A stretch of DNA of 64,000 nt. Source: an uncultured Sulfitobacter sp. (GTDB taxonomy: Bacteria; Pseudomonadota; Alphaproteobacteria; Rhodobacterales; Rhodobacteraceae). The notes below the pieces were generated by a model. The model was not told the DNA's origin and made no database searches. It saw only the letters and a list, made by a program, of their open reading frames with translations. Made by a program: the position numbers and the translations under genes. The DNA is taken from NCBI RefSeq assembly GCF_947497275.1, contig NZ_CANMFS010000007.1:80955-144954 (forward strand). Direction: 5' to 3'. Below are positions 3,505 through 12,253 of this stretch, in pieces; the first letter of the stretch is position 1, and each line of letters starts with the position of its first letter.

Positions 3505-4398
3505 TCACCCCGACGTTTTCCGCCCTTTTAACGCCTCGAAGCCGATAATTACATCCAAAAGCTCGGTCGTGATCTCATCCTGCCGCACCGTGCGCGTTTC
3601 CGACATCAACGCATCCAGCCGGTCATCCACGGATTGCTCGGCCTGTTGCATTAACGCAAGCCGCGCGGCGTTCTCGGTGACAAGGGCTTCGGCCGCAGCC
3701 CTGAACAGGCTTGCAAACAGATGTCCGCGGATCAGCGCCACAAACAAATCCCCCGATTCCATGGTATAATGCGGCAGGCTGCGCGAAACCCACGGTGTGC
3801 TTTGCAGCTCCTGCACCAACCCGGGGTCAAGCGGCAGTAACGGCGCGACGACGGGTGCCCGCATTCCGCCCTCGCTGCGCGCGAAATACGCCAGCGACAC
3901 GGCAACCTCGCGCGGAAGATGACGCGTGCGCAGATCATCGAGCCGCCGGGTCAGCAGATTGGCGAGCCGCCCGATGCCATCGACGGACGCCGGAGGAAAA
4001 AGTGCCTTTTCGACGTCGATCCCTTGATCAGCAAGGGCATCCGCCATCCGCGCGCCGATGCACAGGACAGTCTGCACGCGACCCGGCGCGCTGCCGATGG
4101 TGCGCGCAACATGGTGGGCCAGGGCTTCGTTGTAGTTGCCGCACAACCCGTGATCAGAACCGAAGACGACCATAACCCGCGCCGCCGCTGCACCGCGCGC
4201 GGCGTGCACCGGCCCCGTTTGCGAAAGAAATGCGTGCAGCCCCTCCAGAACTGTCGCGTGATACGCCTCGATGGCGCGGGCGGCGTGTTCATAGGGGGCG
4301 GCGTTAATGACTGACAGTGTTTTCATCGTGTGCACCACACTGCGGATGCCCGTCATGCTGGTCGTGCGCCGGGCCAGCGCCTCAAGGGTCTGGGTCAT
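3505..4398 (-). CDS. atpG: N-type ATPase F1 gamma subunit
   Basis: [51 protein letters not shown]; start MTQTLE at 4398. Confidence 0.92.
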
Positions 4399-5920
4399 GC
4401 GACTTTTCCAGATTTTCCAGCGCCAGCGCGCCAAGTGCCGCCATCCGCGCCCGCGCGGCATCGTCAAAGGGCACATTCTGCGCGATCTGCCCGGCGATAT
4501 CGTCAAGGTCGCGCGCGGCGGCCTGACGGACCGCATGCATCGCTGACTGCATGCGGGCCTCGTCCAGCCCGTCGAACTGTCCATCCATCGCCGCGATCAG
4601 AACGGCAAGCTGTTCGACCGCCGGGATCGGATCGCGTTCGGCCTGCCGCAGCGACAACCGCACCGCCGCGCCGCGTTTCAACCGCGCGCGCGTCGCATCG
4701 TCAAGCCGGGTGCCGAACCGCGCGAAATCCTCCAGCTCTTCGAACTGCGAAAGGGTCACGCGCAGGTTTCCCGCCACCGACCGGAACGCGCGGCTTTGCG
4801 CCTTGCCCCCCACCCGGCTGACCGACACTCCTAGATCCACCGCCGGAAACTGGTTCTTGCGGACCAGACGCGGCGACAGATAGATCTGTCCGTCGGTGAT
4901 CGAAATGAGGTTGGTCGGGATATAGGCCGACAGGTTTTCCGCCTGCGTCTCGACGACCGGCAGGACGGTGATGGACCCGCCGCCGATCGACGGGGCGAAC
5001 TGGCCCGCACGTTCAAGAAGCCGTGCGTGAATGTAGAAGATATCGCCTGGAAACGCCTCGCGCCCCGGCGGTCGGCGCAGCAGCAGCGACAGTTCCCGAT
5101 ACGACCGGGCGTGGTGCGTCATATCGTCCAGCACCACCAGAACATCGCGGCCCTGCGCTGCAAACTGCTCGGCCATCGTCATCGCGGCGTAGGGCGCAAT
5201 ATAGGCAAGCCCCGCCGCCCCCTCGTCGCCCGCCGCCACGATCACCGTGCGCCCCATCATCCCACCGTCGCGCACCGCGCCAATGACCTTGGCCACCGCA
5301 TCGCCGCGCTGCCCTATGGCGCAGTAGATACAGATGACATCGGTGTCCTTCTGGTTCAGGATCGCATCCACCGCGACCGAGGTCTTGCCGGTCTGCCGGT
5401 CCCCGATCACCAGTTGCCGCTGTCCCAACCCGATGGGGACCGCCGCATCTATCGCCTTGATCCCCGTCGCCAGCGGGCGGGTGATGGCCTTGCGGTCAAG
5501 GATATCGGGCGCTTGCGCCTCTACGGGGTGCCGCGCATCCGCCTTGATCGGCCCGCCGTCGTCCTGCGGATGTCCCAGGGCATCCACCACCCGGCCCAGC
5601 AACCCTGCGCCGACCTGCGTACTCACCACCCTGTGCGTCCGCATCACCCGTTCCCCCACGACGATATCCGCCGACGGCCCCAGCAGCACGACGCCCAGCC
5701 GCCCCGGTTCCAGATCCAACACGATGCCCTGCACGCCACAGGCAAACTGCAAAAGCTCATCCGAAAGCGCGCGCGCCAATCCCGTCACGACGGCAATCCC
5801 GTCGGCCACCTCGGCCACCTGCCCGACCTCGCTGATGCGGGGCGGCGGTGCGGGACTGTCCAGCAGCGCCCGGACAAGCGTCTCGGGATGCGGCCGCAGT
5901 ATCCTGATATCATTGTCCAT
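4382..5920 (-). CDS. atpA: N-type ATPase F1 alpha subunit
   Basis: GDRQTGKT Walker [32 protein letters not shown]; start set at MDNDIR (5920). Confidence 0.95.
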
Positions 5921-6680
5921 GCGAAGCAGGTTCCAGATCGCCACCACCGGCCAGCCGCGCGGTGATCGACGCGTCCAGCCCGTCGACGTAGGACTCGACC
6001 GTCCAGGCCAGCTGCGCCCCGCCCATGCGCATCACCAGACCGGGCGACTGATCCGCATCCGTTTCAAATTCGACGGTCACACCGGTAAACGCCGCCGCGA
6101 TTGCGCTACGCAGCGTTTCGCGCACATCCGAACCAAGCGGCGCGCGGCTTGAAATCACGGCCTCCGTCGCCTGTCCCGCAGCGGTGCGCAAATCAGCCGC
6201 CACTGTCTCGATCCTTGCGATCAGGTGCCGTGCCACCCGTTCCTCGAACGTGTCGTCCGCCAGATCCGTCAGCGCCTTGCGCGTGAGCGACAACAGCGCA
6301 TCGGCCCCGATGTCCTGCAATCTCGCAGCATATTTTTTCGCTTCCGCCGCCAGCTGCGCCTGCCAGCCGGCCTGCTCCTGCTCCATCGCCGCGCGGGCGT
6401 CCGCCAGCAGGGTGTCGCGCTGTTCCTCGGCCTTACGGCGCACCGTCTCCATCATATCCGCCTGCGCCACGTTCAGCGCCCGCAACTTTTCCTCATAGGC
6501 CTCTTCGCGCGCCTTCGCCGCTTCCTTCACCGTCTCCGCCTCGCGCATGCGGGCGGTGATTTCCGCCTCGCGGGCGTCGATCCCGTCAAGAATGGGCCGG
6601 TACAGGAACCGCTTGAGCAGCCACACGAGCACCAGAAAATTGGCGATCTGTGCCGCGACAGTGATCCAGTCGATGGACAC
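5910..6680 (-). CDS. atpF: N-type ATPase F0 b subunit (long form with C-terminal delta-like extension)
   Basis: [32 protein letters not shown]-terminal TM, coiled coil, 256 aa; no separate atpH in the operon. Confidence 0.9.
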
Positions 6681-6683
6681 GGG

Positions 6684-10029: not shown

Positions 10030-10949
10030 CGGTCTTCGAACGGCTTGTTCGAGACATGAGTGCCCGCCGTACCATCAAGGATTTCAAGCGCATCGGCCAG
10101 CCGCCCAATCCCCGCGATACCGCCCCGGTCCACGAAATCACAGGCTGCCGTCAGCTTTGGTCCCATGGATCCGTCCGGCAGGTCCAGCTTGCGCCCCTCC
10201 TCCGAGGTGAGCATCCGCAACGGTGTGGCTGCATCGGTGCCGAACCCGTCGTAGACCGCATCGACATCCGTCAGCAGCAACAGCGCATCCGCACCGATAT
10301 CCGCGGCCAGAAGCGCGCTTGCCGCGTCCTTGTCGATCACCGCCTCGATGCCCACGATACTGTCATCGGCGCGGCGCACCACGGGGATGCCTCCGCCGCC
10401 CGCGCAAATCACGATCACTCCCTGATCCAGCAACATCCGCACCACCCGCAGATCGGGAATTTCAATCGGGCGCGGCGACGGCACAACGCGCCGCCAGTCC
10501 GCACCGTCCCGCGCAATGCTCCACCCCGCCGCTGCGGCGCGCGCCTGCGCGTCCTCCTGACTATAGACCGGCCCGACGAACTTGGTCGGATTGCCGAACG
10601 CAGGGTCCTGCGCGTCCACGACAACCTGCGTCAGCAGCGTGGCGACGGCATGGTCGTGCCCCAGCGCGTTCTCCAGCTCCTGCTCGATCAGATAGCCGAT
10701 CATGCCCTCGGTCTCGGCCCCCAGCACATCCAGCGGAAAGGTCTCATCGGGCCTGTACGCCGCACCCTGCAACGCCAGCAGACCGACCTGCGGTCCGTTG
10801 CCGTGGGTCACGATCAAACGGTGCCCCACGCGCACCACGCGGGCCAGCGCCGCCGCCGCGGTTTTCACATTGGCGCGCTGCGCCTGCGCGGTCAGCGGCT
10901 CTGCGCGCTGCAACAGGGCATTGCCACCGACGGCTGCAACCACCAACAT
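10026..10949 (-). CDS. arcC: Carbamate kinase
   Basis: [52 protein letters not shown]; its TGA overlaps the atpD ATG. Confidence 0.94.
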
Positions 10950-11008
10950 ATCAGACCTCCCCTTTCACGGCATCTGTCAGACCACTACTGTGAAACATGC
11001 ATCTGCCC

Positions 11009-12253
11009 TCAGACCGGGTCGCGCATGGTGGGACAGCTCATGCAATGACCGCCGCCGCGTCCCCGGCCCAACTCGGCCCCGGGAATCGCCAGCACCTCGA
11101 TGCCTGCCGCCTTCAGCGCGGCGTTGGTGTCATCGTTGCGGTCGTAGCCGATCACCAAACCGGGCCGCAGGGCGAGCACGTTGTTGCCGTCGTTCCATTG
11201 CTCGCGCGCGCGCTCTTCGGCGGTCTCACCACCCGTGGGCACAATCTGGAGGGACTTGTATCCCAGCACTTCCGCCACGATGTCGAAGATCGGGCGCGGA
11301 TCGTGTCGGTATTGCAAAGGCTCCGCGCCCTCGCCGGGGCGAATGTCGTAGCACACCAGCGCGTCCGCGACCTCCTTGAAGGTCGTCACAACGTCTCCGC
11401 CGCACAGCGTGAACACCGTGTCCAGATGCATCGCCGCGCGCGATTTCGGCATCGCAAATGCCAGAACCCGCTGCGCCGCACCGGTATCGAACAGCGCCTC
11501 GGCCAATTGCCCGACGCCCTGCGGCGAAGACCGCTCGCCCATGCCGACCAGCACCGTACCGTCACCCACAGGCATGATATCGCCCCCCTCGACCGTCGCC
11601 AGACCGTGGTCGGTTGTGGGATCACCCCAGTGCACCGTCGTCTTCCCAGCGAATTTCGGATGAAACCTGTAGATCGCTGCGTTCAAGAGCGTCTCCGGCC
11701 TGCGGGCGGGCCAGTACATCGGATTGACGGACACGCCGCCAAAGATCCACGCCGAATTGTCGCGGGTGAACAGGGCGTTCGGCAGCGGCGGCAGGATAAA
11801 CCCATGCGCGCCCAGATAGCTGCCGAACAGCCCCGAAGGCACGAACGGCAGATCATCCACTGCCAGCCCGCCCAGCAGAAATTCCGCCAGCTGCGCACCG
11901 GGTAACACATCCAGCCACGCGCGCAACTCCGCGCCCATCCCGACACCGATCTGGTCCGGTCCCAACCTGTGATCAAGGATCCACGCGCGCCCTTCGGGAA
12001 TGTCCACCGTCTCGGCCAACAGCGTATTGACGTCCAGAACCTCGACGCCCTCGCCGCGCATCGCGGCCACGAAAGCCGCGTGATCCTTCTGTGCCTGCTT
12101 GACCCAGAACACATCGTCGAACAACAGCGACTGGCAGTTGGCCGGGGTCAGCCGCCTGTGCGCCAGACCGGGCCGGCACACGATGACCTGCCGCAACCTG
12201 CCGGTTTCTGAATGGACCCCCAATGTGCCGGACGCGGCTGTATCTGACGGCAT
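11009..12253 (-). CDS. arcA: Arginine deiminase
   Basis: [45 protein letters not shown] containing the catalytic Cys; RBS aggag. Confidence 0.96.

Follow-up and report, generated by a model that had tools for sequence, protein, structure and literature searches.

The arginine deiminase (ADI) pathway, the rotary ATPase of the N type (N-ATPase) and the Anr/FNR box are textbook components of bacterial physiology. In a stretch of 64,000 nucleotides from an uncultured Sulfitobacter sp. (contig NZ_CANMFS010000007.1, positions 80,955 to 144,954; hereafter the window), the three are found together: eleven co-directional genes on the minus strand, from 3505 to 12253, encode arginine deiminase (arcA), carbamate kinase (arcC) and the nine subunits of an N-ATPase (atpDCQRBEFAG), downstream of an FNR-type palindrome.

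The described system closest to the ATPase part is the N-ATPase operon itself (Dibrova, Galperin and Mulkidjanian 2010, PMC2881411; Burkholderia pseudomallei N1No, PMC5376962). It shares with the window the gene order, the AtpQ subunit, an AtpR with two Arg residues, the absence of a delta gene, a long b subunit, a c subunit with Glu and the ESTxxY motif, and a marine host. The difference lies at the start of the operon, which here and in many relatives is not atpD; the atp genes are instead fused downstream of ADI-pathway genes behind an FNR-type box. The N-ATPase literature examined makes no mention of an arc context or of a link to ATP-forming kinases. For the arc part, the closest system is the ANR-dependent arcDABC operon of Pseudomonas aeruginosa, which resembles the present locus in the end-to-end alignment of ArcA, in the carbamate kinase and in the Anr/FNR-type palindrome upstream, and whose full complement, arcD/E-A-B-C, is found in relatives of the window. 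By contrast, the window lacks arcB and the antiporter gene, and its operon runs unbroken into nine ATPase genes.

Acid-tolerant streptococci follow the same logic, in that a rotary ATPase running backwards uses the ATP from carbamate kinase for ion export. Their two systems, however, are encoded by different operons, acid is the trigger, and the housekeeping H+ F-type ATPase does the pumping, whereas the window has a dedicated and presumably second ATPase, which bears a Na+ signature and is fused to the arc genes, and a motif that points to oxygen control. Finally, the lxa locus of Burkholderia cenocepacia is activated by low oxygen, has an Anr-like motif and is required for anoxic persistence (PMC3721108). 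Its acetate kinase, phosphate acetyl/butyryl transferase, polyhydroxyalkanoate (PHA) synthase, reductase and ABC/HlyD exporter genes, with the Anr/Fnr-like motif, recur as a set around the arc/N-atp block in three of the comparison loci (numbered here with the prefix L; L003, L004 and L165), and partly in the window. The lxa locus also carries a P-type cation ATPase and universal stress proteins, without N-ATPase or arc genes; the likeness is one of gene content.

The sequence-only reading that preceded this analysis considered the operon undescribed, and no description was found within open-licence PMC and bioRxiv. In that scope, no paper combined N-ATPase with arginine deiminase, N-ATPase and acetate kinase were co-mentioned only incidentally, and the literature on Roseobacter and Dinoroseobacter contained nothing relevant to the linkage. 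Relative to the literature found, two observations are new: the physical fusion of arcD/E-A-B-C to atpDCQRBEFAG as a widespread operon, and the association, general among N-ATPase operons, with kinases whose ATP formation needs no respiration. We interpret the locus as a low-oxygen energy-maintenance operon in which substrate-level ATP drives the extrusion of Na+ (possibly H+) by the N-ATPase, a reading to which we assign a probability of about 0.6.

The arcC-atpD junction and its recurrence

In the window, the start codon of atpD (ATG, 10029-10027) overlaps the stop codon of arcC (TGA, 10028-10026) in the sequence cgATGAcc. The same 4-nt ATGA overlap is found at five further junctions, namely atpD/C, C/Q, Q/R, R/B and B/E, and the arcA stop is separated from the arcC start by 59 nt (11008-10950). 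The co-direction of arcA, arcC and the nine atp genes, the ATGA coupling of arcC to atpD and of most atp genes to each other, and the 59-bp gap had all been described in the sequence-only reading, and are confirmed by the minus-strand open reading frames (ORFs), by the Pfam and NCBIfam matches and by the junctions as read from the letters. The start of atpG, previously placed at 4584, is most likely the ATG at 4398, on the basis of the sequence and of the gene call in a near-identical contig (L161); the coordinates of atpA were corrected as well, to 4382-5920.

The conservation of this arrangement was analyzed in two reciprocal searches. One genome per species was scanned with the N-type AtpD and then searched by tblastn for arc genes, and metagenome contigs were scanned with ArcC. 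About 25 independent sequences, from genomes and from metagenome contigs, have an arcC gene that abuts an N-type atpD; they belong to Rhodobacterales, Hoeflea, Kiloniellaceae and Marinobacter, and in most contigs the distance from the arcC stop to the atpD start is -8 to +15 nt. Because the junction recurs in about 25 independent contigs, the adjacency is beyond chance, and the concern that it might be a one-off of this genome no longer stands. The carriers are mostly marine. Directly upstream of atpD, arc genes were found in Sulfitobacter sp. CW3, Roseovarius amoyensis, a Sulfitobacter metagenome-assembled genome (MAG), Phaeobacter sp. SH40, a Kiloniellaceae MAG and Marinobacter sp. F3R11 (L002, L004, L006, L007, L011, L013), and arcC is followed immediately by atpDCQRBEFAG in 14 metagenome contigs. 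The closest sequenced relatives, Roseovarius roseus (L164) and a 1.3-Mb MAG contig (L165), are also fused.

Other arrangements of the same genes were found. A short-chain dehydrogenase/reductase gene separates arcC from atpD in two contigs (L127:2363-3133 and L142:2766-3536), accompanied in L127 by a DUF308 (HdeD-like) gene; genes of this family also stand directly upstream of atpD in L020 (9088-9999), L014, L017, L024 and L071. The atpD gene and arcEABC are divergent in two contigs (L145, L158), and arcEABC follows atpG in L151, in Vreelandella sulfidaeris (L054) and in Marinomonas profundimaris (L062). The linkage of arc and N-atp genes is real and takes at least three architectures, of which arcD/E-arcA-arcB-arcC-atpDCQRBEFAG is the ancestral and widespread one. 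In Roseovarius roseus, a nitroreductase-like gene (L164:5962-6984) is inserted between arcA and arcB.

Gene identities and the reduced arc block

Genes were identified by their Pfam and NCBIfam profile scores relative to the cutoffs of the models. The arcA gene (11009-12253, minus strand) is intact and encodes an arginine deiminase of 414 amino acids (PF02274, E=6e-112; NF002381, 537 bits, cutoff 414). The protein aligns end to end with the ADI of P. aeruginosa (1RXX; E=9e-159, 532 bits) and retains the catalytic motifs FTRD, EGGD, AMHLDT and GGGHCM. The arcC gene (10026-10949, minus strand) is likewise intact, and its product of 307 amino acids is, as judged from profile scores above two cutoffs, predicted to be a bona fide carbamate kinase (NF009008, 433 bits, cutoff 361; TIGR00746, 367.5 bits, cutoff 358).

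The enzyme that connects these two activities is missing. No ornithine carbamoyltransferase (arcB, OTC) was found in the operon or in the whole 64-kb window (tblastn, E > 0.3), and no match to an arginine/ornithine antiporter of the ArcD or ArcE/YfcC-DcuC type anywhere in the window. In all relatives the arc block is complete and consists of an antiporter (ArcD, TIGR03810, or ArcE/YfcC-DcuC type), arcA, arcB and arcC, with the arcB gene, about 1 kb long, between arcA and arcC and the antiporter gene upstream of arcA; none of the 160 comparison loci has arcA directly beside arcC. The blastn homology to the relatives ends at the arcA stop and restarts 11 nt before the arcC ATG. The 59-nt spacer (10950-11008, minus strand) is the scar of an arcB deletion: its final ~16 nt (GGGGAGGTCTGAT before the ATG) still resemble the last codons and stop of arcB in the relatives (GGGGGCCTGAG before the ATG). 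The opposite polarity, an insertion of arcB in the relatives, was rejected, since the order arcABC is universal and the final nucleotides of arcB, with its stop codon, are still there in the window. The arcA-arcC-atp form is a reduced, lineage-specific derivative and not the typical architecture. The sequence-only reading had proposed a self-contained arginine module; this does not hold for the window, which lacks two parts that every relative has. As a result of these losses, the conversion of citrulline and phosphate to ornithine and carbamoyl phosphate, and the supply of arginine, must come from elsewhere in the genome, and the window lineage presumably uses an OTC encoded in trans.

The arcB-less form is not an assembly artefact, since positions 8500-13500 of the window are covered without gaps by seawater metagenome contigs at 98.7% identity, and all three of the population contigs displayed have the order ackA<-pta<- ->arcA->arcC->atpD. 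An ArcC 99% identical to that of the window (cluster P0001) is present on seven contigs from several seawater samples; an exact-sequence look-up of the window ArcC returned no match. One contig of metagenome X3 suggests a form that skips 322 nt inside arcA (window 11770-12093). It was not retained as a real variant, as its anchor of 35 nt and its low identity make cross-mapping from the arcA of another organism probable.

The loss of arcB raises the question of whether the remaining arc genes are a decaying relic, that is, a promoter-bearing leader of the N-ATPase operon left after arcB and the antiporter gene had gone. This explanation draws on the absence from the window of genes present in all relatives, and on a series of erosion upstream of otherwise similar N-atp operons, which runs from the full arcD/E-ABC through the arcA-arcC of the window and 3' stubs of arcC (L001, L005) to no arc genes at all (L003, L014). 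However, arcA and arcC are full length with their catalytic motifs, and the architecture is stable in at least seven contigs from several seawater samples. Moreover, a comparison of the window with one seawater contig (L161, 98.5% identical) gave 15 synonymous and 3 non-synonymous differences in arcA and 6 and 2 in arcC, corresponding to ratios of non-synonymous to synonymous polymorphism (pN/pS) of 0.07 and 0.12; both genes are thus constrained like the atp genes, for which pN/pS ranges from 0 to 0.36. Taken jointly, the two genes show 21 synonymous against 5 non-synonymous differences, which indicates that they are under purifying selection in the arcB-less lineage. Given this selection and the conserved ADI catalytic motifs, ArcA and ArcC are predicted to be still functional, and a relic is considered rather unlikely. 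By lacking arcB and the antiporter gene, the version in the window provides a natural experiment on the dispensability of parts of the module.

The assignment of the nine downstream genes to an N-ATPase, already made from the sequence alone, is upheld by gene order, AtpR, AtpQ and the absence of a delta gene. The order atpD-C-Q-R-B-E-F-A-G was confirmed by the ORFs and the family matches, and models of the 'alternate F1F0' ATPase are the best matches for the beta, epsilon, a, c, b and alpha subunits. All genes lie on the minus strand. The beta subunit (atpD, 8635-10029) has TIGR03305 ('alternate F1F0 ATPase beta') as its best NCBIfam match, with 729 bits, just below the cutoff of 752 bits. It is followed by epsilon (atpC, 8228-8638; TIGR03166, alternate F1F0 epsilon, 110.5 bits, cutoff 100.1), the membrane subunit AtpQ (7944-8231; PF09527; TIGR02230, 76.6 bits), the N-ATPase-specific membrane subunit AtpR (7660-7947; PF12966, 28.8 bits, cutoff 26), the a subunit (atpB, 6968-7663; TIGR03306, 305.9 bits, cutoff 302.1) and the c subunit (atpE, 6684-6971; TIGR03322, 141.5 bits, cutoff 130.9). 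The remaining genes encode a long b subunit of 256 amino acids (atpF, 5910-6680; PF00430), alpha (atpA, 4382-5920; 512 amino acids according to the gene call in L161) and gamma (atpG, 3505-4398; PF00231).

Several hallmarks support this classification. In the translated AtpR, two arginines (R51 and R82) lie within hydrophobic stretches, although the protein scores only 22 bits, under the cutoff, against TIGR03165. There is no separate delta/OSCP gene (atpH), and AtpF has a delta(OSCP)-like C-terminal part, with a weak PF00213 match over residues 120-236. An Arg pair in the membrane part of AtpR and a delta-like tail of the b subunit are both among the known hallmarks of N-ATPases (PMC2881411). 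AtpE contains a Glu in helix 1 (GPALGEG) together with the ESTxxY motif (IESTAIY), the full signature of Na+ ligands according to the criterion established for c subunits (PMC2881411). On this motif and the literature, Na+ (possibly H+) is the likely pumped ion. The prediction for N-ATPases is that they pump at the expense of ATP (PMC2881411), and the N1No enzyme of B. pseudomallei, which is H+-coupled and has a c17 ring, was proposed to be an ATP-driven pump for acid stress (PMC5376962). The direction of the window enzyme would accordingly be that of ATP hydrolysis and ion export, as the literature and the linkage to ATP-forming kinases suggest.

The reverse direction was also considered, in which the N-ATPase is an ATP synthase working at low ion-motive force, an additional anoxic source of ATP beside carbamate kinase. 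With a large c-ring such as the c17 ring of B. pseudomallei, a low driving force could in principle suffice for synthesis, and all linked genes concern ATP supply. But N-ATPases are never the sole rotary ATPase of a cell, ATP synthesis was unaffected when Methanosarcina acetivorans had its N-ATPase operon deleted (PMC2881411), and the operons encode no generator of an ion gradient, as the linked enzymes make ATP and build no gradients. We regard this explanation as hardly credible. Within the 64-kb window, no second atp operon was found.

The shared intergenic region and the predicted oxygen control

The arcA gene is divergent from a pta-ackA pair, from which it is separated by an intergenic region of 281 bp. 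The first gene of the pair, maoC-pta (12535-13932, plus strand), encodes a bifunctional enoyl-CoA hydratase/phosphate acetyl(butyryl)transferase (NF006045, 759 bits; Pfam), and the second (13929-15104, plus strand) an acetate/propionate-family kinase (TIGR00016, 348 bits, cutoff 293) whose start overlaps the pta stop by 4 nt. From these matches, the pair is predicted to be a second substrate-level ATP-forming unit that shares the intergenic region of arcA. In the comparison with L161, the acetate kinase gene had 10.5 synonymous and 11.5 non-synonymous differences, and its pN/pS of 0.39 is the highest of the cluster, which suggests a weaker constraint on this gene than on arcA and arcC.

The intergenic region contains an exact TTGAC-N4-GTCAA palindrome, TTGACGTAGGTCAA (12347-12360), with its center upstream of both start codons, at ~100 bp from the ATG of arcA and ~181 bp from that of pta. 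Sequences of the form TTGAC/T-N4-G/ATCAA are the site type of FnrL, Dnr and Anr in Dinoroseobacter and Pseudomonas (PMC5398030). A putative second box, TTCTATCAGATCAA (12449-12462, minus strand), is degenerate, with a perfect right half, and lies ~80 bp upstream of pta; at the equivalent place in the alignment, the relatives have a perfect box. The 64 kb of the window contain two exact FNR-type boxes in all, against 0.17 expected. The other one, TTGATCGTCGTCAA (22961-22974), lies where an aldehyde dehydrogenase ORF (21607-22986, minus strand) has its 5' end, and low oxygen may regulate this gene too.

The position of the palindrome is conserved. In the alignment, every column of the TTGACGTAGGTCAA box matches up with a box that precedes arcD/E in L002, L004, L007 and L084. 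At least 12 loci have an FNR-type box within 40-250 bp upstream of arcD/E, and the total for all loci is 49 exact boxes in 2.06 Mb. Based on this positional conservation among relatives, we propose that the operon is under low-oxygen (anoxic) control through the predicted FNR/Anr-type box. No gene for a Crp/Fnr regulator was found within the 64-kb window. In Roseovarius roseus, a gene of the Crp/Fnr family (L164:15513-16307) lies immediately after atpG on the opposite strand.

Most likely, arcA-arcC-atpDCQRBEFAG is expressed as a single transcript, as its gene junctions suggest. A scan of positions 3000-12700 for sigma-70 promoters and terminators yielded no more hits than background, none of them between arcA and atpD, and is uninformative in an alphaproteobacterium with 64% G+C. 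Searches for RNA runs of the relatives L007 and L013 had no result. In seawater metatranscriptomes, the window was matched by one contig of 167 nt within arcC and by cross-mapping on the conserved P-loop region of atpD. A perfect palindrome, TTGACCGATGTCAA, was observed inside arcC ~240 bp upstream of atpD in two loci (L001:4147-4160 and L126:592-605). It arises from the conserved kinase codons LLTDVD through a change of D to N, and the corresponding site of the window (~10262-10275) has two mismatches. Since it coincides with the LLTDV(N) codons of a conserved kinase motif, it was rejected as a dedicated FNR box and kept only as a caveat concerning an internal promoter; L001, which has this box, keeps only a truncated arcC, and the box may be a route to anoxic control of the atp genes independent of arc.

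The c subunit and the promoter region also bear on an explanation in terms of acid or pH homeostasis, in which ammonia from the ADI pathway neutralizes the cytoplasm while the N-ATPase expels protons, on the model of ADI and F-ATPase in oral streptococci. The H+-coupled enzyme of B. pseudomallei, with its proposed function under acid stress (PMC5376962), would be a precedent, and the DUF308 (HdeD-like) gene between arcC and atpD in L127 is consistent with it. By contrast, the carriers live mostly in the sea, where the water is alkaline, the c subunit has the complete ESTxxY-plus-Glu signature for Na+, the motif in the promoter region belongs to the FNR type, which senses oxygen, and a parallel linkage to acetate kinase, which produces acid, misfits alkalinization. 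Taken together, these features make a role in pH homeostasis very improbable.

Kinase genes around N-ATPase operons and the proposed function

All ORFs of at least 100 amino acids flanking 80 N-ATPase operons were clustered without prior assumptions, and representatives were annotated. The commonest flanking family is acetate/propionate kinase, present at 13 of the 80 loci, followed by ABC ATPases (9 loci), by arcA, arcB, PHA synthase, Pta and the phosphoketolase Xfp (7 loci each), and by the polyphosphate kinase PPK2 (6 loci); short-chain dehydrogenases and P-type ATPases are recurrent neighbors as well. The loci with acetate kinase come from at least five phyla and include Alpha- and Gammaproteobacteria, Planctomycetota, Verrucomicrobiota and Elusimicrobiota. 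In 11 of the 13, the kinase gene is co-directional with the atp operon; it abuts atpD in L023 and L041 and comes directly after atpG, followed by xfp, in L031 and L064. The pair formed by Xfp and acetate kinase, which yields acetyl phosphate and then ATP, was found after or beside the N-ATPase operon in L031 (17151-20835), L064 (16971 onward), L027, L051, L056, L057 and L069, with hosts among the Planctomycetota, Verrucomicrobiota, Acidobacteriota and Elusimicrobiota. PPK2, an enzyme able to use polyphosphate to regenerate nucleoside triphosphates, stands beside the N-ATPase operons of six unrelated genomes (L008, L010, L028, L040, L056, L072), at a minimum distance of 45 nt. Altogether, an ATP-forming kinase (AckA, ArcC or PPK2) lies within 10 kb at 26 or more of the 80 loci, against a rough chance estimate, which ignores phylogeny, of about one locus for single-copy genes.

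Genes of the lxa type extend this neighborhood in the relatives, in which phaC, an enoyl/acetoacetyl-type reductase gene and an HlyD plus ABC-2 exporter lie between pta-ackA and the arc/atp block (L003:2016-9645, L004:2370-5068, L165:2330-3973). In the window, pta-ackA and the motif are present, and phaC and the reductase gene are absent. A few kb from the N-ATPase cluster, the window encodes a large Na+/H+ exchanger fused to a C-terminal cyclic-nucleotide-binding (cNMP) domain (18357-20969, plus strand); SulP transporters with the same domain are found near N-ATPase operons elsewhere (cluster 12, five loci).

An alternative explanation is co-regulation without energetic coupling, in which arc, pta-ackA and the N-ATPase belong to a low-oxygen or stress regulon on a mobile island, are neighbors through a shared regulator and joint transfer, and the ATPase serves salt or ion homeostasis whatever the source of its ATP. 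In its favor, FNR-type boxes also precede atpD in genomes without arc (at 103 bp in L014, 136 bp in L059 and 318 bp in L003), N-ATPase operons are laterally mobile (PMC2881411), neighbors unrelated to energy (ABC-2 exporters, SulP-cNMP, CBS proteins, P-type ATPases) occur as well, and the lxa-type locus is itself a mixed stress island. This would, however, be a loose regulon, whereas stoichiometric co-expression is implied where arcC overlaps or nearly overlaps atpD, and where ackA does so with atpD or atpG. Three ATP-forming kinases with their feeders, Pta and Xfp, are the top recurrent neighbors, which generic stress co-regulation does not predict. We therefore consider co-regulation alone unlikely, though deserving of more weight than the other alternatives.

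The energy-maintenance reading proposes instead the following course of events. When respiration fails or oxygen becomes limiting, an activator of the FNR/Anr/Dnr type would bind the site upstream of arcA and induce most likely one transcript, arcA-arcC-atpDCQRBEFAG, and probably the divergent pta-ackA as well. Carbamate kinase would then make ATP from carbamoyl phosphate, and acetate kinase, whose gene is read in the opposite direction from the shared intergenic region, would make it from acyl phosphate. The co-expressed and co-translated N-type rotary ATPase would hydrolyze the ATP made by the kinases and expel Na+ (H+ is possible), so that ion-motive force and ion balance could be kept without respiration. 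In the window lineage, the path from arginine to ATP would depend on an OTC and an arginine supply encoded elsewhere.

A number of points weigh against this reading. With arcB and the antiporter missing, the genes encoded here cannot by themselves turn arginine into carbamoyl phosphate and ATP, and without an antiporter, ATP-driven uptake of arginine would cancel the yield of one ATP per arginine. Specificity for Na+ is uncertain, as the c-ring of B. pseudomallei is H+-specific despite its two carboxylates (PMC5376962), and ATP-driven export is a predicted direction for the N-ATPases of this clade. The transcript data consist only of the 167-nt metatranscriptome contig inside arcC, and the ATGA overlap leaves room for a promoter within arcC, where the near-FNR sequence at ~10262-10275 is located. 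Lastly, AtpD is 77-91% identical across classes, and lateral transfer of one module may explain part of the spread of the fused form, which would then reflect fewer independent events. The notion of fermenting arginine and burning the ATP to pump ions, first put forward in the sequence-only reading, therefore survives in part: the recurrent linkage of N-ATPase operons to ATP-forming kinases strengthens it and the FNR-type box fits anoxic induction, but the module is not self-contained in the window.

Extended to the whole class, the same reasoning would make N-ATPases dedicated ion pumps powered by fermentation or by stored phosphoryl donors, under a low-oxygen or dormancy regulon. Their operons would be wired, by fusion, abutment or divergence, to carbamate kinase, to acetate kinase fed by Pta or phosphoketolase, and to PPK2, in at least five phyla, with the arcDABC-atpDCQRBEFAG super-operon as the most explicit case. 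We offer this generalization tentatively and place it slightly short of an even chance.

Genomes have revealed N-type ATPases since 2010, and their cellular role has largely been guesswork (salt extrusion; acid stress in Burkholderia). The arc fusion, the FNR-type motif and the linkage to acetate kinase, phosphoketolase and PPK2 lead to one hypothesis, namely that substrate-level ATP is spent on membrane energy and Na+ exclusion once respiration has ceased, and this hypothesis is directly testable in cultured strains of Roseovarius, Sulfitobacter and Marinobacter. It bears on how aerobic heterotrophs of the sea survive where microniches become anoxic, for example in particles, algal aggregates and sediments. 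If true, the class-wide reading would provide a direct, testable answer to the question of the physiological role of N-ATPases.

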